Positions 34,269 through 50,531 of a stretch of DNA of 64,000 nt are shown here, one piece after another. The DNA lies in the NCBI GenBank assembly GCA_964500985.1, contig CAZCRB010000001.1, positions 8,173 through 72,172 of the forward strand, written 5' to 3'. A model generated the notes under the pieces. The model did no database searches. It saw nothing but the letters and a program-made list of their open reading frames with translations, and was not told the DNA's origin. Made by a program: the position numbers and the translations under genes. Position 1 is the stretch's first letter. The number at the start of each line of letters is the position of its first letter. Source of the stretch: an uncultured Eubacteriales bacterium. Lineage in GTDB: Bacteria > Actinomycetota > Coriobacteriia > Anaerosomatales > PHET01.

Positions 34269-34739
34269 ATGCGGATCTCGGTAGTCGCGGTCGGTCGGCT
34301 CAAGGAACGCTTCTGGGTCCAAGCGTGTGACGAGTACCTCAAGCGGCTCAAGGGCTACGCCGATGTGCGCGTGGTCGAGGTCGGCGACCGCGACCCGGGC
34401 CGTGCGGGCACCGAAGAACGCGCGCGGTCTCTCGAGGGCGCCGACGTGCTCAAGGCCCTGCCGGAGGGCACGCACGTGATCGCGCTCGACATCGCGGGCC
34501 GCGCCCTGAGCAGCGAGGCGTTCGCCGGGCACCTCGCCAAGCTCGCGCTCGACGGGCGCAGCACCGTCGCGTTCGTGATCGGCGGGTCCACCGGACTCGC
34601 TCCGGAGGTCCTCGCGCGCGCCGACGAGCGGCTCTCGCTCGGCCCTCTGACACTGCCGCACAATCTTGCGAGAGTCGTGCTTCTCGAGCAGGTCTACCGG
34701 GCCTTTCGGATCCAGCGCGGCGAGCCCTACCACAAGTAG
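34269..34739 (+). CDS. rlmH: 23S rRNA (pseudouridine1915-N3)-methyltransferase RlmH
   Basis: 156 aa SPOUT protein (MRISVVAVGRLKE ... FVIGGSTGL ... EQVYRAFRI). Confidence 0.9.
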   Translation: MRISVVAVGRLKERFWVQACDEYLKRLKGYADVRVVEVGDRDPGRAGTEERARSLEGADVLKALPEGTHVIALDIAGRALSSEAFAGHLAKLALDGRSTVAFVIGGSTGLAPEVLARADERLSLGPLTLPHNLARVVLLEQVYRAFRIQRGEPYHK

Positions 34740-34866
34740 CAGCCGCGCTGTCGGCACGGGGTCTCGCGCCTGGCTTGCGGGGGCGGGTCCGCTTTGCTGG
34801 GGTACAGGCTCATCGGGTATCCTTACCGCTCACATTCGTGCGTGACACCCGAAGGGTTCTGCTGCC

Positions 34867-36573: not shown

Positions 36574-36578
36574 CTCCC

Positions 36579-36607
36579 TTGACGCATCGCCGCCACACAT
36601 CTAGCAT
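36579..36607 (+). promoter_or_regulatory. putative promoter for lysA-hom-thrB (TTGACG-17 nt-TAGCAT)
   Basis: -35 TTGACG at 36579-36584 and -10 TAGCAT at 36602-36607, with exactly 17 nt between them. Motif-only prediction. Confidence 0.4.
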
Positions 36608-36620
36608 GTGCGAATCGCAT

Positions 36621-36640
36621 TACTTAGCATATACTAAGTA
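36621..36640. promoter_or_regulatory. AT-rich 20-bp near-perfect palindrome (candidate operator) in the lysA leader
   Basis: TACTTAGCAT|ATACTAAGTA: 9 of 10 positions are self-complementary and 15 of 20 bases are A/T, in a very GC-rich genome. Lies between the predicted -10 and the lysA RBS. Confidence 0.4.
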
Positions 36641-36665
36641 GCCCGTCGACCAAAGGGGAGAGACC

Positions 36666-38027
36666 ATGGGCAGGCCTTCAGCGCCCCGACCGCCGGCGAC
36701 GCCGGACCGCAAGACCGCACACGACCTGATGTCGGTGCTGCCGATGACGGCCGAGGTCAAGGACGGTCACCTGTGGGTCGGCGGTGTCGACACCGTCGAG
36801 CTCGCCGCCGAGGCGGGCACGGCGCTCTACGTCATGGACGAGGCGACGATCCGCCGCCAGCTGCGCGAGTACGTGAAGTGGACGACCTATCACTGGCCCG
36901 ACGTCGACGTGGTCTACGCCGGCAAGGCGTTCATGTCGCTGGCGATGGTCAAGCTCGTGGCCGAGGAAGGCTGCTGTCTCGATGTCTCGAGCGGCGGCGA
37001 GCTCGCGTTCGCCCGGCGCGCCGGTTTCCCGATGGAGCGCATCTACGTCCACGGCAACAACAAGACGCCGGGGGAGCTCGTCGAGTGCCTTGAGGCCGGA
37101 GTCGGCCGCATCGTCGTCGACTCGTTCGAGGAGATGGACCGCCTGAGCGCGCTGGCCACCGAGCGGGGCGTCTCGCAGAAGGTGTTGCTGCGCGTCACGC
37201 CGGGCGTCGAGGCCGACACCCACGACTTCATCATGACCGGCGCCGAGGACTCGAAGTTCGGCTTCGGGCGCAACCAGGGCCTCGCGATGCAGGCGGTCAA
37301 GCGCGCCATCGAGCTGCCCGGCATCGACTTCGACGGCCTGCACATGCACATCGGCAGCCAGATCTTCGCGCTGCACAGCTTCTCCAAGGCCATCGAGGTC
37401 ATCGTCGACTTCATCGCCGAGATCAAGGCCGAGACCGGAGTCGAGGTGCGCATGCTCGATACCGGCGGCGGGCTGGGCATCGCCTACGGCATCCCGGACG
37501 AGCCGTCCACGATCCAGGACTACGGCAAGGTGGTCGTCGACGGGATCAAGGAGGAGTGCGAGAAGCACGGCCTCACCGTGCCCGCGATGGCAGTCGAGCC
37601 GGGCCGCTCGATCGTGGCAAACGCCGGCGTGACGCTCTACACCGTGGGCTCCATCAAGGAGATCCCGAACATCCGCACCTACGTGGCGGTCGACGGCGGC
37701 ATGTCGGACAACATCCGCACCTCGCTCTACGACGCGCACTACGAGGCGCTGCTGGCCAACAAGGCGGACCAGCCGCGCGAGATGGTCGCCACCGTGGCCG
37801 GCAAGCACTGCGAGAGTGGCGACATCGTCGTCAACGACGCGCCGCTGCAGTGTCCCGAGGTCGGCGACGTGCTGTGTGTCTGCGCAACCGGGGCGTACTG
37901 CCAGTCGATGAGCAGCAACTACAACAAGCAGGTGCGCCCCGGTGTCGTCTTCGTGGCCGACGGCTCCTGGCGCTGGGTGGTGCGCCGCGAGACCTACGAC
38001 GACCTCATGAAGTGCGAGGTCGAGTAG
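36666..38027 (+). CDS. lysA: diaminopimelate decarboxylase
   Basis: 453 aa. PLP fold-III decarboxylase motifs (YAGKAF, HIGSQ, DTGGGLG, CESGD). Confidence 0.95.
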   Translation: MGRPSAPRPPATPDRKTAHDLMSVLPMTAEVKDGHLWVGGVDTVELAAEAGTALYVMDEATIRRQLREYVKWTTYHWPDVDVVYAGKAFMSLAMVKLVAEEGCCLDVSSGGELAFARRAGFPMERIYVHGNNKTPGELVECLEAGVGRIVVDSFEEMDRLSALATERGVSQKVLLRVTPGVEADTHDFIMTGAEDSKFGFGRNQGLAMQAVKRAIELPGIDFDGLHMHIGSQIFALHSFSKAIEVIVDFIAEIKAETGVEVRMLDTGGGLGIAYGIPDEPSTIQDYGKVVVDGIKEECEKHGLTVPAMAVEPGRSIVANAGVTLYTVGSIKEIPNIRTYVAVDGGMSDNIRTSLYDAHYEALLANKADQPREMVATVAGKHCESGDIVVNDAPLQCPEVGDVLCVCATGAYCQSMSSNYNKQVRPGVVFVADGSWRWVVRRETYDDLMKCEVE

Positions 38028-38029
38028 GG

Positions 38030-38395
38030 GTGGACGAGTTCGCGATCAAGGGCCGCCTGTGGACCTCGGCCGTGGTCGACGCGCGGCTCAGGGCGGTCTT
38101 CTCGGGAGCCGACGCCAACCGGGCGGCCGTGCTGGTGGCGGGCCTGGTCGGCGAGGACCCCGGCGGCGACCCCGAGCTCTCGGACCTCACGTCGTGCCGC
38201 CTGATGCTGGCGGCGCTCAAGCTCAGTGACGGTGATCTCGGGAAGCTGGCGATGTGGGTCGAGGCCGGGCGTGCGGACCCGCGCGACCTGATCGCGGCGG
38301 CCGAGTACCGTCGCGAGCTGCAGGGGGGCGGGGAGTCGGCGCGGCAGGCCGACCTCGCGGAGTACCTCGGTTGGATGGCCGGCGACCAGCTCTAG
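38030..38395 (+). CDS. hypothetical protein (about 121 aa)
   Basis: GTG lies 2 nt after the lysA stop, in the ORF-track frame 37556..38395. Strong GC3 bias and no recognisable motif. It fills the whole lysA-hom gap. Confidence 0.4.
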   Translation: MDEFAIKGRLWTSAVVDARLRAVFSGADANRAAVLVAGLVGEDPGGDPELSDLTSCRLMLAALKLSDGDLGKLAMWVEAGRADPRDLIAAAEYRRELQGGGESARQADLAEYLGWMAGDQL

Positions 38396-38490
38396 CCGCC
38401 GCCGGCCCTCACCGCCCGCGCGGGGTCGGCTACAATAGGCGCACTTCGTCACTGGTATCGCTCCCGCAGGAGCGCTCGGAGGTAGTAGTC

Positions 38491-39780
38491 ATGCGTACCG
38501 TCCGCGTCGGCCTCATCGGCCTGGGCACCGTCGGCAGCGGTGTCGTCGACATCCTGAACCGTCACCGCGAGGACTTCCGCCGTCGGGCGGGCGTCGACAT
38601 CGAGCTCGCTCGTTTCGCCGATCGCAGCGAGTCCCGTTTCGCCGAGCTCGGTCTGCCGCTCGACGCGTGCACGACAGACGCGTTCGCGCTCATCGACGAC
38701 CCGTCGCTCGACGTGGTCATCGAGCTCATCGGCGGCACGGGTGTGGCGCGCGATGTCGTGCTCACCGCGCTCGGGTCGGGCAAGGCCGTCGTGACCGCGA
38801 ACAAGGCGCTGATGGCGACGTCGGGCGAGGAGGTCATGGAGGCGGCCGAGGCCAACGGGGTCGACATCCGCTTCGAGGCCAGCGTCGGCGGCGGCATCCC
38901 GATCATCGAGCCGCTCAAGCACTCGCTGACGAGCAACGAGATCTCCACGGTCATGGGCATCGTCAACGGCACCACCAACTACATGCTCACGCGCATGGCC
39001 GAGAACGGCCTGGACTACGCGAGCGCTCTGGCCGAGGCCCAGGAGCGCGGCTTCGCCGAGGCGGACCCGACCGCCGATGTCGACGGCTACGACGCCGCCG
39101 CCAAGATCGCGATCCTCGCGTCCATCGCCTTCAACAGCAGGGTCGTGCTGCCGCAGGTCCCCGCGGAGGGCATCCGATCGATCGCTCCCGCCGACATCGC
39201 CTACGCGCGCCAGATCGGCTACACCATCAAGCTGCTCGCCATCGCGCGGCGCACGCCTGAGGGCATCGACATCCGGGTCCACCCGACGATGATCCCGGCC
39301 GCGCACCCGCTCGCGAGCGTCAACGGGGTCTACAACGCCATCTACGTCGTCGGTGACGCCGTGGGCGAGACGATGTTCTTCGGCGAGGGCGCCGGCTCGC
39401 TGCCGGCCGCCTCCGCCGTCGTCGGTGACCTCGTCGAGGTCGCGCGCAACATCCAGACGGACTGCGCTCCGGTCGTCGGTTGCACCTGCACCGAGCACCA
39501 CGCGGTCCGCGACATCTCCGACCTGCAGACCCGCTACTACATCCGCCTTCTCGTGGCCGACAAGCCCGGCGTCCTCGCCGCCACCGCCAAGGTCTTTGGC
39601 GACCACGGCGTGTCGCTCGCGAGTGTGATCCAGCGTCCGGCTCAGGAGGGTGTCACCGCCGAGCTCGTCTACGTGACGCACACCGCGCTTGAGGCCGACG
39701 TGCGCACCGCTCTCGACGAGATCGGCGAGAACGAGTCGGTTCTCGAGATCGCCGCCGTCATCCGCGTCGAGGACCTGTAG
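38491..39780 (+). CDS. hom: homoserine dehydrogenase
   Basis: Trimmed to the ATG at 38491 after GGAGG. VGLIGLGTVGSGV NAD motif, a catalytic domain and a C-terminal ACT domain. Confidence 0.95.
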   Translation: MRTVRVGLIGLGTVGSGVVDILNRHREDFRRRAGVDIELARFADRSESRFAELGLPLDACTTDAFALIDDPSLDVVIELIGGTGVARDVVLTALGSGKAVVTANKALMATSGEEVMEAAEANGVDIRFEASVGGGIPIIEPLKHSLTSNEISTVMGIVNGTTNYMLTRMAENGLDYASALAEAQERGFAEADPTADVDGYDAAAKIAILASIAFNSRVVLPQVPAEGIRSIAPADIAYARQIGYTIKLLAIARRTPEGIDIRVHPTMIPAAHPLASVNGVYNAIYVVGDAVGETMFFGEGAGSLPAASAVVGDLVEVARNIQTDCAPVVGCTCTEHHAVRDISDLQTRYYIRLLVADKPGVLAATAKVFGDHGVSLASVIQRPAQEGVTAELVYVTHTALEADVRTALDEIGENESVLEIAAVIRVEDL

Positions 39781-39784
39781 AGCC

Positions 39785-40702
39785 GTGGGCGCCGCCGTCC
39801 TCGTCCCGGCCACGTCGGCCAACCTCGGTCCCGGGTTCGACAGCTTCGGACTCGCGTTGGACCTGCGCAACCGCTTCGAGGCCGAGCTCGCGCCGGACTG
39901 GGCCGTGCAGGTCGAGGGCGAGGGTGCTGGCGTGCTCGCGACCGACGCCACCAACGTCGTCGCGCTGTCGATGGCGCGGGCCTTCGCCGAGGCGGACCGG
40001 CCCGAGCTGTGTGCGCACATCCGCTGCCTGAACCGCATCCCCACCGGCTCGGGGCTCGGCTCGTCGAGCGCCGCGATCGTCGGCGGACTGCTCTTGGGCG
40101 AGGCGCTGGCCGGTGCCGACTTCGGCGACCAGCGACGCCTCGAGATCGCGGCCGAGATCGAGGGCCATCCCGACAACGTCGCCGCCGCGCTCTTTGGCGG
40201 CTTCACCGTCTGCTGGACCGACGAGGGCCGCGCGCGGTTCGCGCGGTTCGAGCCCGCCCGCGGGCTGGCGGCCGTGGCCGTGCCGGCACTCACCGAGCTG
40301 TCGACGAGGACCGCCCGCGCCATGCTCCCCGACGAGGTCTCGCACGCCGACGCCTCGTTCAACGTCGCGCACGCCGGGCTGCTTGCCGCGTCGATAGCGG
40401 CCGGTCGTCCCGAGCTGTTCGGCGACGCCTTCGCGGATCGCCTGCACGAGCCGTATCGCGCCAAGGCCGTCGGTGACCTGCAGCAGGTCGCCGCCATCCT
40501 GCGTGACGCCGGGGCGGCGGGTGTCGCGCTCTCCGGAGCGGGCCCGACCGTCATCGGCATCGTCGCCGGCGACACCGATCGCGCGGCGCACGATCTGGCC
40601 GAGGAGATCGCGGGCCGGGCCGCGTCGCGTATCCGGGCCCTCGGGACCCGCCGCTCGCCTGAGGCGCTCGCGATCGACCGTTGGGGCGCACGGCTGCTCT
40701 AG
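39785..40702 (+). CDS. thrB: homoserine kinase
   Basis: GTG at 39785. GHMP kinase motifs (PATSANLGPGFD and PTGSGLGSSSAA). Confidence 0.9.
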   Translation: MGAAVLVPATSANLGPGFDSFGLALDLRNRFEAELAPDWAVQVEGEGAGVLATDATNVVALSMARAFAEADRPELCAHIRCLNRIPTGSGLGSSSAAIVGGLLLGEALAGADFGDQRRLEIAAEIEGHPDNVAAALFGGFTVCWTDEGRARFARFEPARGLAAVAVPALTELSTRTARAMLPDEVSHADASFNVAHAGLLAASIAAGRPELFGDAFADRLHEPYRAKAVGDLQQVAAILRDAGAAGVALSGAGPTVIGIVAGDTDRAAHDLAEEIAGRAASRIRALGTRRSPEALAIDRWGARLL

Positions 40703-40843
40703 CCCGTGCTGGCCTGCGGCGCTGTTTCGCGCGGCGCACCCGTTTGGTGGCGCCGATCGTGTTGACCCGCCCTTGCTCGTGGGGAAGAATCTGGGTACCG
40801 CTCCGTCCGCCGCTCGGCGTGACGCGTCTCACCCGGAGGTAAC

Positions 40844-41881
40844 ATGCCCGATCAGGGATTCCCGTCGCAGCCGCCTGTCGCTCCCGTCCCGCCCGCCGCC
40901 GCGGAGCCGTCGGTTCCCCCCGCGTCGCCGCAGGACGACGGTGCCCGGCCCGAGCCTCCGCGCCGGTCGCGTGCGTGGATCTGGTGGACGCTCGGCGCGG
41001 TGCTCGTCATCGCGGGGCTCGTGACCAGCTGCGCGTTCAGCATCGCCAGCCTCGGTGGCAGTTCCGATGCGCTCGGCGCCGGCATATCCGGTGACGCGGT
41101 CGCGGTGATCTACATCGACGGCGTGATCGCCGGCACCGGCGACCCCTACGGCGGGTACGTGACGCCGGAGTACTTCCAAGACCAGCTCCAGCAGGCGATC
41201 GACGACGAGTCGGTCAAGGCGATCGTGCTGCGGGTCGACTCTCCCGGCGGCACGGTGGCCGCCAGCGAGGAGATCGCGAGCTATGTCAAGGACTGCGACA
41301 AGCCCGTCGTGGTCTCGTCCGGAGACGTCAACGCGTCGGGCGCCTACATGGTCTCCTCTCAGGCGGACCAGATCTGGGCGCTTCCCGGCACGGCCGTGGG
41401 CAGCATCGGTGTCATCTCCGAGATCCCCAACGTCTCCGGGCTCCTCGACAAGGTGGGTGTCGAGTTCCAGGTGATCACCGCCGGCAAGTACAAGGACGCC
41501 GGCTCGCCCTATCGCCCGCTGACCGAGGAGGAGCGCGCGCTCATCCAAGGCGAGGTCGACAACTCCTACGAGCAGTTCATCGACATCGTGGCCGAGGGCC
41601 GCGACATGCCCCGCTCCGAGGTCGAGAGCCTGGCCACCGGGTGGGCATGGGACGGTGACACCGCCAAGGGGCTCGGGCTCGTGGACAAGCTGGGCACGAT
41701 GCAGGAGGCACTCGACGCGGCGGCGCGTGCCGGCGGCATCAAGGGCGACTACGACACGATCACCTACGAGGAGGACCTGGGGCCGCTGCTCTCGAGCCTC
41801 GTGGGCCTGACCGACCGGCTCGACACGATCGGCGCGCTCATGCAGCGCGAGGACGCAGCGCGCAGCACGTTGCCACACTAG
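40844..41881 (+). CDS. sppA: signal peptide peptidase SppA (S49 family, 36K type)
   Basis: Pro-rich N-terminus, a TM helix, then RVDSPGGTVAAS and ASGAYMVS motifs of ClpP/S49-fold peptidases. Confidence 0.85.
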   Translation: MPDQGFPSQPPVAPVPPAAAEPSVPPASPQDDGARPEPPRRSRAWIWWTLGAVLVIAGLVTSCAFSIASLGGSSDALGAGISGDAVAVIYIDGVIAGTGDPYGGYVTPEYFQDQLQQAIDDESVKAIVLRVDSPGGTVAASEEIASYVKDCDKPVVVSSGDVNASGAYMVSSQADQIWALPGTAVGSIGVISEIPNVSGLLDKVGVEFQVITAGKYKDAGSPYRPLTEEERALIQGEVDNSYEQFIDIVAEGRDMPRSEVESLATGWAWDGDTAKGLGLVDKLGTMQEALDAAARAGGIKGDYDTITYEEDLGPLLSSLVGLTDRLDTIGALMQREDAARSTLPH

Positions 41882-41906
41882 CGAGTCCCCGACCGGGGGA
41901 GGGGCG

Positions 41907-42710
41907 ATGGAAGACAAGGTCGTCATCGCACACATATCGGACCTGCACTGCGGGTCGCGCTACCACATCCCGTCGCTCGCCAAGCGCGTGATCGACGAGC
42001 TCAACGAGATCGGGCCGGACATGGTGGTGGTCTCCGGCGATCTGACCGACATGGGCTTCAGGCAGGAGTTCAAGGCAGCCAAACGGCTCATCGACGGCCT
42101 CGAGTGCGAGAGCCGCATGGTGTTGCTCGGCAACCACGACGCGCGCAACGTGGGGGACGAGCACTTCACCGAGCTGTTCGGCGCGCGCAGCCAGGAGATG
42201 CAGGTCGGCGCGGTACGCGTGCTCGGGCTGGACTCGAGCGAGCCCGACCTGGACTCCGGGCGCATCGGGCGCGAACGCTACCGGTGGATCCAGGAGCGCT
42301 TCAACGACTGCGGCGAGGACTTCCGCGTCGTCACGATGCACCACCACCTCGTCCCCGTGCCCGGCACGGGGCGGGAACGCAACATCGTCTTCGACGCCGG
42401 CGACCTGCTGCGCGTGCTGGCCGACACCGGCGTCGATCTCGTGCTGTGCGGGCACAAGCACGTCCCCAACGTCTGGCGCCTCGAGGACATGCTCATCGTG
42501 AACGCGGGGACCTGCTGCACGCACCGCCTGCGCGGCAAGGTGCGCCCCTGCTACAACGTCATCGAGATCTCCGAGGGCTCGCGTGTCCGGGTGATGCTCA
42601 AGGAGCCCTACGTCGATGCGCACGTCGTCGCCGACTACCGCGACATCAACCAGCCGGTCTGCAACTGGCGCCACGCCGCGTCGTTTGCCGAGCACGATGA
42701 TGAGGAGTAG
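41907..42710 (+). CDS. metallophosphoesterase (calcineurin-like)
   Basis: All MPE motifs are present: ISDLHCG, SGDLTD, GNHD, MHHH, GHKH. 267 aa. Confidence 0.85.
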   Translation: MEDKVVIAHISDLHCGSRYHIPSLAKRVIDELNEIGPDMVVVSGDLTDMGFRQEFKAAKRLIDGLECESRMVLLGNHDARNVGDEHFTELFGARSQEMQVGAVRVLGLDSSEPDLDSGRIGRERYRWIQERFNDCGEDFRVVTMHHHLVPVPGTGRERNIVFDAGDLLRVLADTGVDLVLCGHKHVPNVWRLEDMLIVNAGTCCTHRLRGKVRPCYNVIEISEGSRVRVMLKEPYVDAHVVADYRDINQPVCNWRHAASFAEHDDEE

Positions 42711-42713
42711 GCG

Positions 42714-44063
42714 ATGAGCCGCGTGGTTGCCCTTGTCGATGGCGAGCACTACCCGCCGGTCGTCCGCTTCGCGCTCAGCGCGCTCGGCGCCGAGCACGAT
42801 GTGGCGGCCGCCTGCTTCATCGGCGGCACCGAGAAGGTCGACCTCGAGCACGGCATGGCCGCCTATGGCGTCCCGATCGTGACGGGCGAGACGCCGGAGG
42901 CGGCGGTGCGCTGCGCGATAGAGCGCTTCGAGCCCGACGCGCTCGTGGACCTCTCCGACGAGCCGGTGCTCTCGAGCGCGGACCGCTTCAGCCTTGCGTC
43001 GATCGCGCTCGGGTGCGGCGTCGACTACCGTGGCGCGGACTTCTCGTTCACGGCACCGCGCGCTCGCGTCGTGGTGTGCACGCCGACGCTCGGCATCATC
43101 GGTACGGGCAAGCGGGTCGGCAAGACGGCCGTGTCCGCCTACGTGGCGCGACGACTCAAGGCGGCGGGGCGTGATGTCGTCGTGCTCGCCATGGGGCGGG
43201 GCGGCCCGAGCGAGCCGGAGCTGATCCACGGCGAACAGGTCGAGCTGACGACGCCGGATCTGCTGGCGCTGGCACGCGAGGGGAAGCACGCCTCGAGCGA
43301 CAACTACGAGGACGCGGTCATGAGCCGCGTGACGACCGTCGGCTGTCGCCGCTGCGGAGGCGGCATGGCCGGCGAGACGTACTTCAGCAACGTGCCCGAC
43401 GGCGCGCGTCTCGCCGACTCGCTGTGCAAGGAGATCATGGTGCTCGAGGGCTCCGGCGCCGCCATTCCGCCGGTGCATGCCGACGCCTCCATCCTCGTGG
43501 CCTCCGCGGCGCGTGGGGCGGGCTACATCACGGACTTCTTCGGCCCGTACCGCGTCGGCCGCGCCGATCTGGCGATCATCGCGTCGGCCGAGGAGCCGCT
43601 CGCGTCCGCAGAGCAGATCGAAGAGGTGCGCGCGGCGTTCGCCCAGCTGGCGCCCGACCTTCCCGTGGTCGCCACCACGCTGCGTCCGGCGCCGATCCTG
43701 CCGGTCGAGGGCCATCGCGTGCTCTTCGCGACGACCGCACCGCCGGCGATCGCGCCGCGGCTGGCGGACTATCTCGAGAGCGAGTTCGGCTGCGAGGTCG
43801 TCGCGGTCAGCACCTCGCTGTCCAATCGCAAGCGGCTGCGCGCGGACCTGCAGCGACACGCGGGCGCGTTCGACATGCTCGTCACCGAGCTCAAGGCCGC
43901 AGCCATCGACGTGGTCGCTGCCGCCGGCGAGGAGGTCGGCGTGCCCACGGTGCTGTGCGACAACGTGCCGGTGGCGGTCGACGGTCACGACCTCGGGCAT
44001 CTCGTGGACCGTGCGGCGGCGCTCGCGCTCGAGCGCGGCACCGCGCGGACGAAGGGGCGCTGA
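42714..44063 (+). CDS. cpgS: candidate cyclic 2,3-diphosphoglycerate synthetase (COG2403-like)
   Basis: 449 aa. The N-terminus VALVDGEHYPPV...FIGGTEK and the P-loop-like GTGKRVGKTAVS match my recollection of the archaeal cDPG synthetase family. Starts 3 nt after the MPE gene. Assignment from memory; no search was run. Confidence 0.65.
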   Translation: MSRVVALVDGEHYPPVVRFALSALGAEHDVAAACFIGGTEKVDLEHGMAAYGVPIVTGETPEAAVRCAIERFEPDALVDLSDEPVLSSADRFSLASIALGCGVDYRGADFSFTAPRARVVVCTPTLGIIGTGKRVGKTAVSAYVARRLKAAGRDVVVLAMGRGGPSEPELIHGEQVELTTPDLLALAREGKHASSDNYEDAVMSRVTTVGCRRCGGGMAGETYFSNVPDGARLADSLCKEIMVLEGSGAAIPPVHADASILVASAARGAGYITDFFGPYRVGRADLAIIASAEEPLASAEQIEEVRAAFAQLAPDLPVVATTLRPAPILPVEGHRVLFATTAPPAIAPRLADYLESEFGCEVVAVSTSLSNRKRLRADLQRHAGAFDMLVTELKAAAIDVVAAAGEEVGVPTVLCDNVPVAVDGHDLGHLVDRAAALALERGTARTKGR

Positions 44064-44065
44064 GC

Positions 44066-44971
44066 ATGCCCGATTCGCAGCCGCAGATCACCATCTCGGA
44101 CAAGGCGCACGGCCTGCCGTTCTCCAAAGGGCTTCTCGCGCAGTCGCTCACCGCGACCGGACTCGCCCCGAGCAAGGCGTACGAGATAGCTCAGGCGATC
44201 CAGACCGACCTGCGCGACCGCGCCGAGCTCGACATCAGCAGCGACCGGCTGCGGCAGCTGGCGGCCGAGTACCTCTCGAATCTGGCCGACGAGTCTTACG
44301 CTCGCCGCTACCTGCGGCTTCGCGACGTCTCGCGGCTCGACCGCCCGCTGATCGTGCTCATCGGCGGCACGACCGGCGTCGGCAAGTCGACCGTGGCCAC
44401 CGAGGTCGCCCACCGCCTGGGTATCACGAGGATTTCCTCGACGGATTCCGTCCGGGAGGTCATGCGTGGTATATTCAGTCGTGACCTCATGCCCGCGATC
44501 TACGAGAGCGCGTTCTCGGCGTGGCGGGGTCTGCGAGTCCCGGTGCCGCAGGGCGCCAATCCCGTGATCGTCGGCTTCCGCGAGCAGACCGCTGTCGTGA
44601 ACACCGGCGTCAAAGCCCTCATCGACCGCGCGGTACTCGAAGGCGTGTCGCTGGTGATCGAGGGCGTGCACCTCGTGCCGGGGTATCTCGATCCGCTCCA
44701 GTTCAAGAACGCGCGGGTCGTGCAGCTTGTCATAGGTGTGGATGACGAGCGGTCTCATCTGAGCCACTTCTACATCCGCGACATCCAGACGGAGGGGACG
44801 CGCCCGCTGGATCGGTACCGGTCGAACTTCGGGGACATCCGACTGCTTGGCCACTACATCGAGGACCTTGCCCGGGAACGCGGCATCCCGGTGATCTACA
44901 GCCACCAGCTCGACCGCACCGTCGCTGACGTGCTCGAGCACGTGGTGGCCGCCGCAATCGAAGAGGAATGA
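44066..44971 (+). CDS. pgk2: candidate 2-phosphoglycerate kinase (COG2074-like)
   Basis: Trimmed to the ATG at 44066, 2 nt after the upstream stop. Has an ATP-cone-like N-terminus (GLPFSKGLLAQSL...AYEIAQAI), Walker A (GGTTGVGKST), then SSTDSVREVMR. 301 aa, the size of archaeal 2PGK. Confidence 0.7.
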   Translation: MPDSQPQITISDKAHGLPFSKGLLAQSLTATGLAPSKAYEIAQAIQTDLRDRAELDISSDRLRQLAAEYLSNLADESYARRYLRLRDVSRLDRPLIVLIGGTTGVGKSTVATEVAHRLGITRISSTDSVREVMRGIFSRDLMPAIYESAFSAWRGLRVPVPQGANPVIVGFREQTAVVNTGVKALIDRAVLEGVSLVIEGVHLVPGYLDPLQFKNARVVQLVIGVDDERSHLSHFYIRDIQTEGTRPLDRYRSNFGDIRLLGHYIEDLARERGIPVIYSHQLDRTVADVLEHVVAAAIEEE

Positions 44972-45017
44972 GAGCCGGCACAAGGCCCGGCTTGAGGAAC
45001 CGAGAGGACAGCGCAAC

Positions 45018-45680
45018 GTGAAGTTCTTCCTGGACACGGCGAACATCGCCGAAATCGAGGAGGCCGCCAGCTGGGGCGTGCTCGCCGGCGTGACGACCAA
45101 CCCCACGCTCTACGCACGCGAAGGCGGCAAGCTCGCCGACTTCCACAACCACCTCAAGCGGATCTGCGAGATCTGCGAGGGCCCCGTCAGCGGCGAGACC
45201 GTCGGACTGCACCGCGACGAGATCATCCGTGAGGGCGAGGAGCTGGCCGAGCTGGCCCCCAACCTCATCGTGAAGGTCCCCACGATGCCCGAGGGCCTCG
45301 CGGCCACCAAGGCGCTGCACGCCAAGGGCATCAAGGTGAACATGACCCTGTGCTTCACCGTGCCTCAGGCCATGCTGGCCGCCCGCTCGGGCGCCTCGTA
45401 CATCTCGCCGTTCGTGGGTCGTTTCGACGACATCTCCGAGGACGGCATCGCCCAGCTCAACGACGTCGTCGTCGCGCTGAACAACTACGACTTCGGCCAC
45501 GACGTCGAGGTCATCGCGGCCTCGATCCGCTCGGCGAACCACGTGACGCAGGCCGCGCTCATGGGCGCCGACATCGCGACGGTCCCGTTCGCCGTACTCA
45601 AGAACCTCGTGAAGCACCCGCTGACCGACCGCGGTCTCGAGTCCTTCCTTGCTGACTGGGAAAAGGTGAAGAACGCATGA
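45018..45680 (+). CDS. tal: transaldolase / fructose-6-phosphate aldolase family (short type)
   Basis: MKFFLDTANIAEI, GVTTNPTL, the Schiff-base Lys region IVKVP and ISPFVGR motifs. 220 aa. Confidence 0.9.
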   Translation: MKFFLDTANIAEIEEAASWGVLAGVTTNPTLYAREGGKLADFHNHLKRICEICEGPVSGETVGLHRDEIIREGEELAELAPNLIVKVPTMPEGLAATKALHAKGIKVNMTLCFTVPQAMLAARSGASYISPFVGRFDDISEDGIAQLNDVVVALNNYDFGHDVEVIAASIRSANHVTQAALMGADIATVPFAVLKNLVKHPLTDRGLESFLADWEKVKNA

Positions 45681-47032
45681 CGGCACGACCTCGCAAGCGT
45701 GGGCGCCGCGGAGGCGGTCAGGGCGGTCAGCAGGATGCGGCTCCCAAGCCGTCAGTGACACGCGAGCAGCTCACGGCGATGACCGTCGCCGAGCTTCGGG
45801 CGATGGCAGCCGAGATCGAGCTCGACGTGAAGTCCCTCAAGAAGAAGGACGAGATCGTTGACGCCGTGCTGGAGGCCAAGGTCAAGGCCGAGGGCTTCAT
45901 CGAGATCTCGGGCGTGCTCGACGTGCTTCCGGAGGGCTACGGCTTCGTTCGCACGAGCGGCTACCTTCCCGGCGATCACGACGTCTACGTCTCGATGTCG
46001 GCGGTTCGCCGCAACGAGCTTCGCCGCGGCGACATGATCATCGGTCAGGTCCGTCCGCCGCGCGACAACGAGAAGTACCCGGCGATCCAGCGCATCGACC
46101 TCATCAACGGCAAGGCCCCCGACCAGAACAAGGGGCGCCCCCGTTTCGCCGACCTGACGCCCGTCTATCCCGATGAGCGCCTGCGGATGGAGCACGGCAC
46201 CAAGCAGCTCACCGCGCGCACCATCGACCTGGTCGCCCCGATCGGCAAGGGCCAGCGTGGCCTGATCGTCTCGCCGCCCAAGGCCGGCAAGACCACCGTT
46301 CTCAAAGACGTCGCGGCCGCGATCTCGGCCAACAACCCCGAGGTCTACCTCATGTGCCTGCTCGTCGACGAGCGCCCTGAGGAAGTCACGGACATGGAGC
46401 GCTCGATCCACGGCGAGGTCGTCTCGTCGACCTTCGACATGCCGAGCGACCAGCACATCGCCGTCGCCGAGCTCGTCATCGAGCGCGCCAAGCGACTCGT
46501 CGAGGGCGGCGCCGACGTCGTGATCCTGCTCGACTCGATCACCCGCCTCGCGCGTGCCTACAACCTCGCCCAGCCGGCGTCGGGCCGAATCCTGTCCGGC
46601 GGCGTCGACTCGACCGCGCTGTACCCGCCCAAGAAGTTCTTCGGCGCCGCGCGCAACATCGAGCACGGCGGCTCGCTCACGATCCTGGCCACCGCGCTCA
46701 TCGACACCGGGTCGAAGATGGACGAGGTGATCTTCGAGGAGTTCAAGGGCACCGGCAACATGGAGCTGCGCCTGGACCGCGGCCTCGCAGACCGCCGCAT
46801 CTTCCCGGCGATCGACGTCATCAGCTCCGGCACCCGCAAAGAGGAGCTGCTGCTCGACCCGCAGGAAGCCCCGTTCGTGTGGGGCGTGCGCCGCATCCTG
46901 CACGGCATCGACAGCCCCGAGCGCGCGATGGACATGCTGCTCAAGGGCCTGAAGCAGACCGACTCCAACATGGAGTTCCTCGGCAAGATGGCGCGCAAGG
47001 CGTCGGAGAAGGGCAACGGAATAGACCTGTAG
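45677..47032 (+). CDS. rho: transcription termination factor Rho
   Basis: The start overlaps the tal stop. Has a Rho N-terminal domain, a CSD-like RNA-binding region (GYGFVR) and Walker A (PPKAGKTT). Confidence 0.95.
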   Translation: MTARPRKRGRRGGGQGGQQDAAPKPSVTREQLTAMTVAELRAMAAEIELDVKSLKKKDEIVDAVLEAKVKAEGFIEISGVLDVLPEGYGFVRTSGYLPGDHDVYVSMSAVRRNELRRGDMIIGQVRPPRDNEKYPAIQRIDLINGKAPDQNKGRPRFADLTPVYPDERLRMEHGTKQLTARTIDLVAPIGKGQRGLIVSPPKAGKTTVLKDVAAAISANNPEVYLMCLLVDERPEEVTDMERSIHGEVVSSTFDMPSDQHIAVAELVIERAKRLVEGGADVVILLDSITRLARAYNLAQPASGRILSGGVDSTALYPPKKFFGAARNIEHGGSLTILATALIDTGSKMDEVIFEEFKGTGNMELRLDRGLADRRIFPAIDVISSGTRKEELLLDPQEAPFVWGVRRILHGIDSPERAMDMLLKGLKQTDSNMEFLGKMARKASEKGNGIDL

Positions 47033-47049
47033 GCCGCTCAGTCGCACCG

Positions 47050-47078
47050 TTGCCGCATCGCGTGCGCGGTGGTAGACT
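47050..47078 (+). promoter_or_regulatory. putative promoter for rpmE (TTGCCG-17 nt-TAGACT)
   Basis: The spacing is exactly 17 nt. A 7-bp leader hairpin CTCTGGT-cggaa-ACCAGAG (47096-47114) follows. Motif-only prediction. Confidence 0.4.
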
Positions 47079-47135
47079 GCTCGGGCTGTCCTCAGCTCTG
47101 GTCGGAAACCAGAGCACCATCGGAGGTGTTCAGAA

Positions 47136-47573
47136 GTGAAAGAGGGTATCCACCCTAACTACGAGACGACCACGGTTGTCTGCTCCTGCGGCAGCCGTTT
47201 CGAGACTCGTTCCTCGGCCGGCGGCGAGCTGCACGTGGAACTGTGCAACCAGTGCCACCCGTTCTTCACCGGTCAGCAGAAGTTCGTTGACACCGGTGGG
47301 CGCGTCCAGCGCTTCGCCGACAAGTTCGGTTCGGCCGCCAGCGCCGTCCTCGAGAAGGAGGCCGCCGAGAAGGAGGCCCGCCGCAAGGCTGCCGAGGATG
47401 CCGCTGCCAAGCTCAAGGCCGAGCGCGACGCCAAGGCCGCCGAGAAGGCCGCCCGCGCCGCCAAGTTCGAGGACGAGGCCCCCAAGGCCAAGGCCGTCGA
47501 GGAGGTTGCCGCTGTCGAGGAGACCGCCGGCGACGTCGTCGAGGAGCCCGCTGCCGAGGAGACCGCCGAGTAG
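47136..47573 (+). CDS. rpmE: 50S ribosomal protein L31 with a long A/E/K-rich C-terminal extension
   Basis: MKEGIHPNY...CSCG...[10 protein letters not shown] is the Zn-type L31 signature. The L31 core ends near residue 70, and about 75 further low-complexity residues follow. Confidence 0.9.
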
Positions 47574-47604
47574 CCCTCGCGCATCTCGCACGCACGACTA
47601 GAAT

Positions 47605-47636
47605 GGGGAGGCGCGCTGCGCCTCCCCGTTTCGTTT
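47605..47636 (+). terminator. rho-independent terminator
   Basis: GGGGAGGCGC-gct-GCGCCTCCCC: perfect 10-bp stem followed by GTTTCGTTT. Confidence 0.7.
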
Positions 47637-47672
47637 CCACCGATGCTCGCCGCGTCGAAAGGCCACAAGGCA

Positions 47673-48362
47673 ATGGACGTCCGCCTGCTTTCCCACACGC
47701 CGGACCCCGAGCGCGCGATCGCCGTCGCCGCCCGCGTCTGCTACGCGCCGGTCGGCGCCGCCGAGCTCATGGAGCACATGAGCGACGAGGCGGTCGAGAA
47801 GGTGCTCTACACGATCATGTCGAGCGGGCATTTCTCGGCGCTCGAGCACGTGAGCTACACCTTCGCGATCGACGGCGTGAGCCGGGCGCTCACCCACCAG
47901 CTCGTACGGCACCGGCTCGCGAGCTACAACCAGCAGTCGCAGCGCTACGTCGCCTACGACGACGACCCCGCCTTCATCGTGCCGCCGACGGTCGACGCCG
48001 ACCCCGAGGCGCGCCAGGCGTTTCTCGAGGCGTGCGGTGAGGCGTTTCTCGCGTACCGCGCGCTGATCGACGCCGGCGTGCCCGCGGAGGACGCCCGCTA
48101 CCTGCTGCCCAACGCCATGGAGACCAAGATCGTGGTCACCATGAACGTCCGCGAGCTGCTCCACTTCCTCGAGCTGCGCTGCTGCAAGCGCGCGCAGTGG
48201 GAGATCAGGGACCTCGCGCTCGCGATGCTCGATCTGGTCGAGCCGACCGCGCCGTACCTGTTCAGCGACGCGGGAGCTTCCTGCCGTCGCGGTGCGTGCC
48301 GCGAGGGCGCGATGACCTGTGGCGACCCCTACCCCAAGGCCCCGAAACGAGTGAAGCCGTGA
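47673..48362 (+). CDS. thyX: FAD-dependent thymidylate synthase ThyX
   Basis: RHRLASYNQQSQRY is the ThyX signature. The start is probably the ATG at 47673 (MDVRLLSHTPDPE); the alternative is ATG at 47643. Confidence 0.9.
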   Translation: MDVRLLSHTPDPERAIAVAARVCYAPVGAAELMEHMSDEAVEKVLYTIMSSGHFSALEHVSYTFAIDGVSRALTHQLVRHRLASYNQQSQRYVAYDDDPAFIVPPTVDADPEARQAFLEACGEAFLAYRALIDAGVPAEDARYLLPNAMETKIVVTMNVRELLHFLELRCCKRAQWEIRDLALAMLDLVEPTAPYLFSDAGASCRRGACREGAMTCGDPYPKAPKRVKP

Positions 48363-49375
48363 GCGAGAGTACCGCCGCCCCGCAGCAAGACGCCGTCGTG
48401 CGCCTCGACGGCCCGGTGAGCCACACCCACATCGGCGGCCAGGCCGTCCTCGAGGGCGTGATGATGCGCGGCAAGTACAACTGGGCCGTCGCCGTGCGCA
48501 CCCCGGACGGCGCGATCCACTTCGAGGAGCACGACCTGACCTCGGCGGCCAAGAAGCACGAATGGATGCGCAAGCCGATCATCCGTGGCGTCGTGGCGCT
48601 CGTGGAGACCCTCTCGCTCGCGATGAAGGCGTTCACCGTCTCGGCGGCGCTGTCCGGCGAGACCGAGGAGGAGCAGCTCAGCGGCAAGGAGATCACGTTC
48701 TCGCTGATCTTCGGCGTCGGCCTCGCGCTGCTGATCTTCATCGTGGCGCCCGCCGTGCTCACCAACTTCATGGTCGGTTCGCAGATCGACCACCCGTTCA
48801 CCTGGAACGTCGTCGACGGCGTCTTGCGCGTCGTCGCGTTCTTCGTCTACATCTGGGCGATCAGCCGGCTCGAGGACATCCAGCGGGTGTTCGCCTACCA
48901 CGGGGCGGAGCACAAGGTCATCCACGCCTACGAGCACGGCATCCCGCTCGAGGCGCCGCTGATCCAGAAGTACTCGACCAAGCACGTGCGCTGCGGTACG
49001 TCGTTCCTGCTCATGGTCATGATCGTGGCGCTCATCGTGTTCTCGCTCGTGCCCGTCCGGTGGATGGCCGCGCAGCTGGGGCTCGACGCCCGCTGGCAGG
49101 TGCTGCTGCTCTCGATCTTCACCCGCATCCTGTTCCTGCCGCTGGTCGCCGGGCTCGCCTACGAGGTGACCGTCAAGTGGGCGGGCTCGCACTCGGAGAA
49201 CCCGATCGTCAAGGCCGTCCTGTGGCCCGGCCTGCAGCTGCAGCGGATGACCACCCGGGAGCCCGATGACCAGATGATCGAGGTCGCCGTCGCCGCCGTG
49301 TTGCCGGTCATCGCTCGCGAGGACCGGGAAGAGGGGCGCGTCCCCGTCGACGACCCGCTGCTCGACCTCGCCTGA
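48359..49375 (+). CDS. DUF1385 (YqhQ-like) membrane protein
   Basis: The GTG overlaps the thyX stop. GGQAVLEGVMMRG and YHGAEHKVIH motifs with 4-5 TM segments. This family is commonly found next to prfA. Confidence 0.75.
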   Translation: MSESTAAPQQDAVVRLDGPVSHTHIGGQAVLEGVMMRGKYNWAVAVRTPDGAIHFEEHDLTSAAKKHEWMRKPIIRGVVALVETLSLAMKAFTVSAALSGETEEEQLSGKEITFSLIFGVGLALLIFIVAPAVLTNFMVGSQIDHPFTWNVVDGVLRVVAFFVYIWAISRLEDIQRVFAYHGAEHKVIHAYEHGIPLEAPLIQKYSTKHVRCGTSFLLMVMIVALIVFSLVPVRWMAAQLGLDARWQVLLLSIFTRILFLPLVAGLAYEVTVKWAGSHSENPIVKAVLWPGLQLQRMTTREPDDQMIEVAVAAVLPVIAREDREEGRVPVDDPLLDLA

Positions 49376-49450
49376 GGGCGCCGGAGCGCCGACGGCTGCG
49401 TGCTAGGATTGAGTCCCTGATCTGACCCCTTTGAGGAGTATCTGAACCAC

Positions 49451-50524
49451 ATGCGCGAGAAGCTCGAAAAGATCATCAGCATCTTCGACGAACTCACCGC
49501 CAAGCTCGGCGATCCCGCCGTGCTCGCGGACCAGAAGGAGTACGCGCGCCTCGCCAAGGAGCAGCGTTCGCAGGCCCCGCTCGCCGAGAAGGCGCGCGAG
49601 TACCTGAGCGTGCTCGACGAGCTCGAAGGCGCCAAAGAGGTGCTCCACAACGAGACCGACCCCGAGTTCAAGGAGATGGCGGCCGAGGAGGCCAAGGAGC
49701 TCGAGGCCCGCATCCCCGCGCTCGAGGACGAGATCAAGGTCATGATGCTGCCGGGCGACCCCAACGACGAGAAGGACATCATCGTCGAGATCCGCTCGGG
49801 CGCCGGTGGCGATGAGGCGGCGATCTTCGCCGGCGACCTGTACCGCATGTACACCCGCTACGCCGAGCTCCAGAAGTGGAAGGTCGAGGAGATCGACGCG
49901 AGCGAGTCCGACACGGGCGGCTTCAAGGACGTCTCGTTCCGCATCAAGGGTGACAAGGTCTACTCCAAGATGAAGTTCGAGTCCGGCGTGCACCGCGTGC
50001 AGCGCGTTCCCGCCACCGAGTCCCAGGGCCGCATCCACACCTCGACCGCCACGGTCGCCGTGCTTCCCGAGGTCGAGGACGTCGAGGTCGAGATCCACCA
50101 GAGCGATCTGCGCATCGACGTCTACCGCGCGAGCGGTCCCGGCGGCCAGTCCGTCAACACGACCGACTCGGCGGTGCGCATCACGCACCTGCCCACCGGC
50201 ACCGTCGTGCAGTCGCAGAACCAGAAGTCGCAGCTCCAGAACAAGGAAGCCGCGATGCGCGTCCTGCGCGCCCGCATCTACGAGGTCGAGCTCGAGAAGC
50301 AGCAGGCCGAGCTCGGGGCGCAGCGGCGCAGCCAGATCGGCTCGGGCGATCGCTCCGAGAAGATCCGCACCTACAACTACCCCCAGGACCGCGTCACCGA
50401 CCACCGTATCGGCCTGACCGTCCACAACATCCCCGCCATCATGGCCGGCGAGATCGACCACATCGTCGAGGCGCTCGTCGCCGCCGACCGCGCGGAGCGT
50501 CTCGCCGCCTTCGCCGAGGGCTAG
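49451..50524 (+). CDS. prfA: peptide chain release factor 1
   Basis: PAT tripeptide (VPATESQGR) and GGQ motif ([11 protein letters not shown]). Confidence 0.95.
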
Positions 50525-50531
50525 GCCGCCG

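Follow-up and report, generated by a model that had tools for sequence, protein, structure and literature searches.

Reviews confine cyclic 2,3-diphosphoglycerate (cDPG) to hyperthermophilic methanogens. Likewise, the 2023 paper describing the structure of cDPG synthetase (cDPGS) from Methanothermus fervidus (8ORK/8ORU) states that the compound occurs exclusively in these organisms (PMC10690619). That paper lists the residues in contact with 2,3-diphosphoglycerate (2,3-DPG), Mg and ADP. K145, R146, K149 and T150 of the P-loop bind the ATP phosphates, Mg and 2,3-DPG, while E45 and K46 of the N-terminal domain extend to the partner protomer's 2,3-DPG site; E45, K46, K145 and R146 contact 2,3-DPG itself. 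D208 is an Mg ligand, and E305, P335, T353, E404 and K406 are adenosine or ribose contacts (PMC10690619). In the non-methanogen Pyrococcus yayanosii, the cDPG-synthesis genes PYCH_14390–14400 are adjacent and co-regulated, and the study proposed that they serve energy supply and not thermoprotection (PMC4890121). As to degradation, a cDPG hydrolase of Methanothermobacter thermautotrophicus, which converts cDPG to 2,3-DPG, is described in the account of Sastry et al. (1992) given in PMC1224877 as a membrane-bound enzyme that K+ and Pi inhibit.

Here we describe a bacterial locus in which putative counterparts of both archaeal biosynthetic enzymes lie side by side. In the window (the whole 64,000-nucleotide stretch of DNA analysed), three plus-strand open reading frames occupy positions 41907–42710 (a metallophosphoesterase, MPE, of 267 residues; Pfam PF00149), 42714–44063 (ORF2, 449 residues, a cDPG synthetase orthologue, CpgS, by homology to 8ORK/8ORU) and 44066–44971 (ORF3, 301 residues, a 2-phosphoglycerate kinase (2PGK)-type protein by NF003259 and its ATP-cone), separated by 3 nt and then 2 nt. 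The MPE/ORF2 junction reads ...GAGGAG TAG gcg ATG and the ORF2/ORF3 junction reads ...GAAGGGGCGC TGA gc ATG, and at both of them a purine-rich, RBS-like stretch lies within the upstream gene. The longest reading frame of ORF3 begins at 43424; the ATG at 44066 is the start that agrees with homologues, and the stop is at 44971. The coordinates and junctions agree with the tight packing of three plus-strand genes reported in the first-pass annotation, which had also described the MPE as fused to the pair; the MPE is instead an ORF by itself, ending in its own stop codon, and closely abuts ORF2.

The block is flanked upstream by thrB (homoserine kinase; 39785–40702, plus strand; TIGR00191, E 5.6e-62, above cut-off), which keeps this position in related loci, and by sppA (S49 signal-peptide peptidase; 40844–41881, plus strand; TIGR00706, E 6.6e-67). 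The sppA slot is variable and lies outside the constant core: L034-type loci carry a Wzy_C-like gene there, and Aquicultor-type loci have no gene in it. Downstream, a type-3B transaldolase/fructose-6-phosphate aldolase gene (tal/fsa; 45018–45680, plus strand; TIGR00875, E 2.2e-78, above cut-off) is constant after 2PGK in related loci, and its stop is overlapped by 4 nt by the start of rho (45677–47032, plus strand; TIGR00767, E 5.7e-193). The ORF list and profile matches thereby bear out the annotated order thrB, sppA, the three genes, tal and rho. The tal/fsa gene is a constant neighbour with no shown functional link to the cDPG pair. A sigma-70-like promoter match (TTGACC-17-AAGAAT, 9/12 matches; 40762–40790, plus strand) lies in the thrB–sppA gap, and no terminator-like site was found between it and rho; the match is a resemblance to consensus rather than proof of function, and serves as a weak lead. 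The block resembles PYCH_14390–14400 of P. yayanosii in the adjacency of the two cDPG genes and in its non-methanogen host, but the P. yayanosii pair is archaeal and hyperthermophilic, lies in a mobile-element/CRISPR region and has no MPE reported (PMC4890121).

ORF2 aligns with the crystallised M. fervidus cDPGS over its full length (E 2.2e-122, 47% identity; residues 3–432 of 449 against 5–442 of 459). The two proteins share a two-domain length, the GTGKRxGKT P-loop and the FIGGTEK contact, the landmarks of ORF2 being MSRVVALVDGEHYPPV...FIGGTEK...GTGKRVGKT. Residues E40, K41, K133, R134, K137 and T138 of ORF2 correspond to E45, K46, K145, R146, K149 and T150 of the M. fervidus enzyme, and D196, E293, T341, E392 and K394 correspond to D208, E305, T353, E404 and K406. 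Across 72 aligned bacterial and archaeal cDPGS sequences, the listed contact residues are identical in 70–72, with the exception of position 335; the P-loop residues K133, R134, K137 and T138 are invariant (72/72), and E40/K41 of FIGGTEK are conserved in 71. The column mapped to position 335 holds F in M. fervidus and L in ORF2, a mapping that is ambiguous with respect to the published P335, and the adjoining R-P-x-P is invariant. The local Pfam and NCBIfam profile copies held no model matching ORF2; a database protein identical to it (P0001) carries a precomputed PF27272 CpgS_N match. By comparison with M. fervidus, the host of this putative synthetase is bacterial, high-GC and apparently mesophilic, and the gene shares an operon with those for 2PGK and an MPE, whereas cDPGS stands alone in nine Methanobacteriales loci.

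ORF3 shares with archaeal 2PGK (NF003259/PRK04220) an architecture of ATP-cone plus P-loop kinase, and holds the P-loop GGTTGVGKST and the motif SSTDSVREVMR. It matches the NCBIfam 2PGK profile NF003259 almost end to end (E 1.4e-91; protein residues 6–296, profile positions 4–291 of 306) with 307.1 bits, under the curated equivalog cut-off of 343. Although formally below threshold, the score misses it narrowly, which is what one would expect of a divergent bacterial orthologue. The ATP-cone (PF03477, residues 18–88) scores 31.8 bits against a cut-off of 25.8 (E 2.1e-7). ORF3 also matches mevalonate-3-phosphate 5-kinase with 79 bits, and the superfamily spans kinases with other substrates; no solved 2PGK structure is available against which the substrate residues of ORF3 could be checked. 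The assignments first made from conserved blocks, of ORF2 to the cDPG synthetase family and of ORF3 to the 2PGK family, are both upheld by these full-length matches, whose E-values lie far outside chance, together with the retained contact residues of the former and the ATP-cone of the latter.

The arrangement is not peculiar to this genome. The order MPE–cDPGS–2PGK–tal–rho recurs in about 70 uncultured, species-level genomes of Actinomycetota, whose cDPGS identity falls as low as 45%, and spans Coriobacteriia-like and Aquicultor-like lineages. The close carriers found are all MAGs. NCBI and JGI pipelines already name such bacterial genes (cyclic) 2,3-diphosphoglycerate synthetase, and no paper treating a bacterial gene was found in the literature searched on cDPG synthetase. 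Of 66 bacterial loci, 63 have the 2PGK gene as the immediate downstream neighbour of cDPGS, the median gap being −1 nt. The order is the other way round in L072, an unrelated bacterial MAG, where 2PGK lies upstream of cDPGS and an archaeal-type phosphoglycerate mutase gene (apgM) accompanies the pair. Phosphoglycerate mutase makes 2-phosphoglycerate (2-PG) from 3-phosphoglycerate, so apgM beside the pair provides independent context support for 2-PG as the substrate.

Since orthologues of both archaeal enzymes occur in one block shared by dozens of related bacteria, bacteria probably make cDPG. By orthology, the ATP-cone/P-loop kinase (44066–44971) would phosphorylate 2-PG to 2,3-DPG, and the putative synthetase would then convert 2,3-DPG and ATP into cDPG, ADP and Pi, with the 3-phosphate attacking, Pi leaving and the cyclic pyrophosphate closing. 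We regard these two steps, kinase and then cyclisation, as reasonably likely. The first-pass annotation had described cDPG as a thermoprotective solute; that role is not supported by the carriers, which, judged by record titles, come mostly from groundwater, peat, soil and sediment. As these carriers are apparently mostly mesophilic anaerobes, cDPG would likely act in them as an anionic solute and a phosphate or energy store, not as protection near boiling.

The MPE is the least certain member of the block. It matches Pfam Metallophos PF00149 (E 8e-18; 66 bits, gathering 21.5), and, as originally annotated, its motifs are complete (D12xH14, G44D45, G75N76H77D78, H145–147 and G182H183xH185); DxH, GD, GNHD, H and GHxH are invariant across 58 orthologues. 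The AF2 model (pLDDT 82.9) shows an MPE fold. Its nearest PDB matches by sequence and fold, GpdQ (2DXL/2ZO9) and Rv0805 (2HY1/3IB7) of the class III phosphodiesterase type, share the calcineurin-like fold and seven metal ligands with it, but only ~20% identity. What sets the MPE subfamily apart is a set of six invariant basic residues beside the metal site, R94, R122, R156, R158, R207 and R209, which fits a polyanionic substrate. Identity as a CpdA/Icc 3',5'-cAMP phosphodiesterase, as databases label many homologues, is not supported, with 37.8 bits on NF008359 against a cut-off of 225 and the low identity to Rv0805; the CpdA/Icc labels that JGI uses are generic annotation transfers.

The MPE would be co-transcribed, and probably translationally coupled, with the pair. 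A tentative role for it would be to open the cyclic pyrophosphate of cDPG by hydrolysis, or else to remove phosphate from 2,3-DPG; carbon and phosphate would in this way return to glycolysis, and synthesis and mobilisation would be encoded together. To our knowledge, no gene is known for the M. thermautotrophicus cDPG hydrolase. The reaction proposed for the MPE is that of this archaeal enzyme and fits a phosphate and carbon store, as far as the account in PMC1224877 describes it; in that account, however, the hydrolase is membrane-bound, whereas no hydrophobic segment was found in the MPE (its Kyte–Doolittle mean over 19 residues peaks at 1.09), which therefore looks soluble. The MPE may be put forward as a plausible candidate for a cDPG or 2,3-DPG hydrolase, although we lean against that assignment.

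There is about an even chance that the pair makes cDPG and that the MPE is a mere syntenic neighbour, a housekeeping phosphodiesterase or phosphatase with an unrelated substrate, for instance a cyclic nucleotide or other phosphoester. A survey of its co-occurrence with the pair covered 68 bacterial loci: in 60 of them the MPE immediately precedes cDPGS, the median junction being a 4-nt overlap, with gaps of at most 10 nt in 88%; elsewhere the subfamily was found apart from cDPG genes. Such start/stop overlap speaks against a mere syntenic neighbour. Yet synteny covers everything from argS to thyX, and tal and rho overlap as often as MPE and cDPGS (median distance −4 nt across 55 loci), so adjacency by itself is weak evidence; moreover, the pair is kept without the MPE in eight of the 68 loci, in at least four lineages. 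On the other hand, the variable slot sits upstream of the MPE, so that the constant part of the module begins with the MPE, which is as conserved as its neighbour (49–56% identity where cDPGS has 45–53%).

The subfamily is widespread, with 180 clusters (at 50% identity) at E <= 1e-30 and members in Methanobrevibacter, Methanobacterium, Altiarchaeales, Wukongarchaeota, WOR-3, Thermoleophilum and Gaiellaceae, and a Thermococcus member is a tandem double domain. Relatives with 42–44% identity in Methanobrevibacter, Thermoleophilum and WOR-3 keep the same basic residues in unrelated contexts (NAC–MPE–PRORP-like in Methanobrevibacter; beside pst/phoU in Thermoleophilum), with no cDPG genes within 8–10 kb of those examined, which favours a neighbour with a substrate of its own. 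No MPE was found within 6 kb of cDPGS in nine methanogen loci; against the neighbour reading, Methanobacteriales have cDPGS as well as an orthologue of the MPE, so the two may yet co-occur phyletically.

A different use of the pair, in which the pathway ends at or mainly serves 2,3-DPG as a regulator or dPGM cofactor, the MPE is a 2,3-DPG phosphatase and cDPG does not accumulate, seems improbable. Monoesterase action of the MPE on 2,3-DPG would be chemically simpler than ring opening, and mesophilic-looking carriers do not obviously need molar solute pools; the catalytic residues of the synthetase, however, are intact in nearly every aligned sequence, which would be pointless were cyclisation unused.

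Still less probable is that ORF2 and ORF3 catalyse something else and no cDPG is made, as would be so if ORF2 were an arginine synthetase of the ArcE type or if the pair phosphorylated another acid. ArcE (TK2200) of Thermococcus kodakarensis, formerly a 'putative GTPase', is an arginine synthetase that works with arcB and arcC; it is a distant cDPGS homologue, widespread in bacteria and long mis-annotated (PMC11032458). ArcE and ORF2 are distant members of the same P-loop superfamily, and the sub-threshold score of ORF3 and the mevalonate-3-phosphate 5-kinase among 2PGK relatives leave some room for another substrate. By comparison, the similarity between ArcE and cDPGS is low (PMC11032458), whereas ORF2 aligns along its whole length with the cDPGS that was assayed and keeps the equivalents of E45, K46, K145 and R146. 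Neither arcB nor arcC, the partners of ArcE, lies near the window locus, and ORF2 falls firmly on the cDPGS side; the recurrent 2PGK-type neighbour, and apgM in L072, further argue for the cDPG pathway.

As judged by comparative evidence, uncultured Coriobacteriia-type Actinomycetota have inherited the block vertically, as an operon module of long standing. The identities of 2PGK, MPE and Rho to the window proteins co-vary with that of cDPGS (Spearman 0.94, 0.88 and 0.76, respectively), which indicates long vertical retention. The block had been described as inserted at the thrB–rho junction; read as a recent event this fails, and a recently acquired genomic island was rejected, since GC is flat (0.66–0.72) through block and flanks, no integrase, tRNA or repeat is evident in the window ORF list, the order is shared by about 70 related genomes and cDPGS divergence tracks that of rho. 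It is accordingly very unlikely that this genome recently gained an archaeal cassette by horizontal transfer, although five additional genes lie between thrB and rho relative to Mycobacterium tuberculosis (whose order we take to be argS–lysA–hom–thrC–thrB–rho–rpmE–prfA) and the characterised family members are all archaeal, because the same gene order extends across deep Actinomycetota lineages and a midpoint-rooted NJ tree, weak and drawn among the matches listed, nests Methanobacteriales beside non-Coriobacteriia bacteria and not outside all bacteria. An ancient transfer may have taken place in either direction.

The broadest interpretation, that cDPG is a widespread phosphate, energy or anionic-solute reserve of mesophilic, uncultured subsurface Actinomycetota, that the MPE is the missing cDPG (or 2,3-DPG) hydrolase and that the Methanobacteriales MPEs are the archaeal hydrolases, is unlikely to be right in all its parts. 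The MPE offers a concrete candidate for a cDPG-degrading enzyme; should it prove unrelated, a solid, incremental result would stand, namely bacterial orthologues of a known archaeal pathway that pipelines had already named. If the pair is active, it would supply mesophilic enzymes for the biotechnological production now pursued with M. fervidus proteins. Furthermore, the makers of cDPG would then include a large group of anaerobic bacteria that live at ordinary temperatures and abound in groundwater, peat and sediments, and its presumed role would shift from heat protection to phosphate or energy storage or charge balance.

The metallophosphoesterase gene (MPE, ORF1; 41907–42710, + strand, 267 aa), ORF2 (42714–44063, + strand, 449 aa) and ORF3 (ATG at 44066, stop at 44971, + strand, 301 aa) were confirmed by the ORF list and by junction reading at the positions proposed in the first-pass annotation. 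The start of ORF3 is backed by homology; the longest ORF in its frame opens at 43424, within ORF2, but does not mark the true start. The junctions, read directly as GAGGAG-TAG-gcg-ATG between MPE and ORF2 and as GAAGGGGCGC-TGA-gc-ATG between ORF2 and ORF3, establish gaps of 3 and 2 nt, and at both an RBS-like purine-rich stretch lies within the preceding gene. These stop codons and gaps rule out a gene fusion, so that the description of the MPE as fused to the pair has to be withdrawn: the genes only abut. The MPE start lies 25 nt past the sppA stop, with a GGGGGAGGGG stretch ahead of it. No paralogues of the three genes were found elsewhere within the window. The search for terminators that would delimit the operon returned none, and a single weak promoter-like site was found ahead of sppA. 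A hairpin-capable stretch, GAGCCGG...CCGGCTTGAG, without a T run, occupies 44972–45000 directly after the stop of the ORF3 kinase gene and before tal, and could be an attenuator or an RNA-processing site. No RNA element was detected in the block by an Rfam E-value scan of 34000–51000, which gave only the leader before rpmE (RF03128, 'L31-Coriobacteria ribosomal protein leader', 47095–47125, + strand; 33.6 bits against a gathering threshold of 33). This Coriobacteria-specific leader agrees with the taxonomy assigned to the window. The downstream rpmE (47136–47573) encodes a 145-aa L31 with a long Ala/Glu/Lys-rich C-terminal tail.

ORF2 has no match in Pfam or NCBIfam profile searches, and a database protein identical to it is assigned to the new Pfam family PF27272 CpgS_N. 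Its comparison with the crystallised cyclic 2,3-diphosphoglycerate (cDPG) synthetase (cDPGS) of M. fervidus (PDB 8ORK/8ORU) extends over essentially the whole length (E 2.2e-122, 47% identity). In the M. fervidus enzyme, E45 and K46 make partner-protomer contacts, K145, R146, K149 and T150 belong to the P-loop, D208 is the Mg ligand, and E305, P335, T353, E404 and K406 lie around ADP (PMC10690619). The equivalents in a 72-sequence alignment are E40, K41, K133, R134, K137, T138, D196, E293, T341, E392 and K394 of ORF2, and these contact columns are kept in 70–72 of the 72 sequences. The '335' column, whose mapping is ambiguous, holds F in M. fervidus and L in the window, with no proline in this numbering, and the R-P-x-P beside it is invariant. 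The assignment of ORF2 to the cDPGS family in the first-pass annotation is borne out by the identity and by the kept contact residues. A third solved structure named cyclic 2,3-diphosphoglycerate synthetase, PDB 9sxb_A, is a 436-aa, Lys/Ile-rich protein (E 4e-106 to ORF2). For ORF3, the proposed 2-phosphoglycerate kinase (2PGK) family is supported by a match to the whole NCBIfam equivalog profile NF003259 (E 1.4e-91) and by the presence of an ATP-cone, but the score of 307 bits falls just under the 343-bit cut-off. A PDB search returned no relatives of the 2PGK family with a solved structure.

The closest proteins to ORF2 are 68–81% identical, and the bacterial genes are already recognised by annotation pipelines and auto-annotated. 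With each GTDB species represented by a single genome, the family was found in at least 567 species genomes, and at E <=1e-10 it comprises at least 7997 clusters; both counts may include sequences like the arginine synthetase ArcE. The best 80 loci were analysed, all of them cDPGS-type by identity and conserved residues. About 70 of these best 80 come from MAGs of uncultured Actinomycetota, among them Coriobacteriia-like bacteria and Candidatus Aquicultor, whose record titles name groundwater, peat, soil, mud volcanoes and sediment as sample sources; nine are Methanobrevibacter or Methanobacteriaceae with 42–45% identity. Gene context was surveyed with tblastn, the twelve genes of the window serving as queries against the best 80 loci. 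The order hom-thrB-(variable)-MPE-cDPGS-2PGK-tal-rho-rpmE-thyX is kept down to 45% cDPGS identity, and in one complete 2.5-Mb genome (L001) the order from argS to prmC is identical to that of the window. Of 66 bacterial loci, 63 have 2PGK directly downstream of cDPGS; in the other three the genes are ordered differently (L072) or the assembly seems to be broken. The co-occurrence of MPE with the pair, cDPGS plus 2PGK, extends to 60 of 68 bacterial loci, where MPE is directly upstream of cDPGS, but eight loci keep the pair without it. The estimated median distances are –4 nt for MPE–cDPGS and –1 nt for cDPGS–2PGK, both junctions being 10 nt or less in about 88–89%, and 21 nt for sppA–MPE, 24 nt for 2PGK–tal and –4 nt for tal–rho; the medians for thrB–sppA and rho–rpmE are over 100 nt. 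Because the content of the thrB–MPE slot varies (sppA in the window, a Wzy_C-like membrane protein in L034-type loci, empty in Aquicultor), the constant module starts with MPE. In the window, the tal/fsa stop and the rho start share 4 nt (45677–45680), and since the same overlap is the median among 55 related loci, the aldolase/transaldolase gene appears translationally coupled to the terminator gene rho across the lineage.

Further differences occur around the module. In the window, hom and thrB are 4 nt apart (39780–39785) without thrC between them; an Aquicultor-type locus (L054, 2585–3640) keeps thrC in the order hom-thrC(PALP)-thrB. A small ORF without a Pfam match (38030–38395, + strand) lies between lysA and hom, and the complete genome L001 has a 127-aa gene without Pfam at the same site. 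In an unclassified bacterial MAG (L072, 4820–9094), overlapping genes encode a 2PGK with two ATP-cones, cDPGS, an archaeal-type, 2,3-BPG-independent phosphoglycerate mutase (PF10143) and a CBS protein, with no MPE; the mutase ties the pair independently to the supply of 2-phosphoglycerate. The cDPGS gene of Methanobacteriaceae has hisD, UPF0058 and a thermosome gene as neighbours, with neither 2PGK nor MPE within 6 kb.

The MPE belongs to the calcineurin-like metallophosphoesterases (Pfam PF00149, E 8e-18) and carries all five motifs (D12xH14, GD45, GN76H77D, H145–147 and GH183xH185). The nearest solved structures by sequence are GpdQ (E 7e-13) and Rv0805 (E 4e-11), which are also the best by fold to its AlphaFold model (pLDDT 82.9), at only about 20% identity. 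A CpdA/Icc identity is rejected (37.8 against a cut-off of 225 bits), and the top match, to the anti-phage phosphoesterase NCBIfam DS9_1, is partial, at 71 against 420 bits, and reflects generic domain similarity. In 1.84 billion representatives, searched exhaustively, its subfamily numbers 180 clusters at E <=1e-30, with relatives at 38–46% identity in Methanobrevibacter, Methanobacterium, Altiarchaeales, Wukongarchaeota, WOR-3, Thermoleophilum album and Gaiellaceae. Thermococcus barophilus and relatives (P0247–P0254) encode proteins of about 500 aa, roughly 505 aa in Thermococcus, with two tandem MPE domains, 29–36% identical to the window MPE, the C-terminal copy being without several metal ligands. 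In Methanobrevibacter (L082–L084, 9644–11833), the MPE orthologue (44% identity) sits far from cDPGS in a conserved NAC-MPE-PRORP/PIN-like order, with no cDPG gene near it. In T. album (L085, 6964–14856), the homologue P0438 (41% identity, tblastn) overlaps a CpsB/PHP-type phosphatase-like gene and is followed by a 570-aa protein without Pfam, next to pstSCAB-phoU and a response regulator, a phosphate-related neighbourhood. The WOR-3 relative has miscellaneous neighbours unrelated to cDPG.

The MPE may be a mere neighbour of the pair, outside the pathway. To our knowledge, no gene is known for the cDPG-hydrolysing activity of M. thermautotrophicus. A role in the pathway is favoured by the high adjacency to and overlap with cDPGS, by the place of MPE at the head of the constant module, and by its sequence, which is no less conserved than that of cDPGS. 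In addition, the invariant basic residues beside its metal site (R94, R122, R156, R158, R207, R209 and K184) suit a polyanionic substrate, and a cDPG-hydrolysing activity does exist in M. thermautotrophicus, although there it is reported to be membrane-bound (PMC1224877), whereas the window MPE has no hydrophobic segment and looks soluble. On the other hand, the entire neighbourhood is syntenic and tal–rho overlap equally often, so adjacency and coupling here say little on function. Furthermore, the eight loci with the pair and no MPE fall in at least four separate places of the tree, and the subfamily is broad, the contexts read in Methanobrevibacter, T. album and WOR-3 being unrelated to cDPG genes. 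Since the basic residues are conserved across the whole subfamily, it probably has one substrate class. Methanobacteriales encode an MPE orthologue as well as cDPGS, and in view of this and of the phosphate-related context in T. album the MPE may have a phosphate-mobilising role. That the MPE is a hydrolase of cDPG or 2,3-DPG is a tentative proposal.

It is very improbable that ORF2 and ORF3 perform some chemistry other than that of cDPG. ArcE is a distant sister in the cDPGS superfamily, widespread in bacteria and formerly a 'putative GTPase', and its similarity to cDPGS is termed low (PMC11032458). An ArcE identity for ORF2 is rejected on account of the 47% identity to an assayed cDPGS, the kept 2,3-DPG contacts and the 2PGK pairing; neither arcB nor arcC lies near ORF2.

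The first-pass annotation had also regarded the block as inserted at the thrB–rho junction. Its comparison was with M. tuberculosis, whose order is argS-lysA-hom-thrC-thrB-rho-rpmE-prfA, and is fair, since in the window thrB and rho are separated by five genes that are not at this place in M. tuberculosis. The block is not a recent insertion, because GC is 0.66–0.72 throughout block and flanks, mobility genes are not evident, synteny spans deep lineages, and cDPGS identity to the window co-varies (Spearman) with that of Rho (0.76), Tal (0.69), 2PGK (0.94) and MPE (0.88). A recent archaeal island is rejected on the flat GC and deep synteny. A midpoint-rooted NJ tree, limited to the best 80 loci and M. 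fervidus and too thinly sampled for the direction of any ancient transfer, places Methanobacteriales beside non-Coriobacteriia bacterial sequences, not outside all bacteria.

cDPG is stated to be known only from hyperthermophilic methanogens (PMC10690619; also a 2025 synthesis paper), and neither this 2023 structure paper nor the 2025 paper mentions bacterial homologues or a hydrolase gene. The microbial literature found to name the synthetase concerns methanogens, ammonia-oxidising archaea, where it serves as a thermophily marker, Pyrococcus yayanosii, where the two cDPG genes lie side by side and a part in energy supply has been suggested (PMC4890121), and ArcE. The synthetase is not mentioned in the paper on the first cultured OPB41 Coriobacteriia, and no report of bacterial cDPG was found in the literature searched, which is not proof that none exists. 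The original observation is confirmed and its interpretation partly supported. The block probably encodes a bacterial form of the two-enzyme cDPG pathway that is ancient and has been passed on vertically, with the MPE as an unproven candidate for the degradative step. The genes had already been named by automatic annotation, and their chemistry in bacteria is putative. Bacterial cDPG would more likely be an anionic solute and a phosphate or energy store in mesophilic anaerobes, rather than a thermoprotectant.
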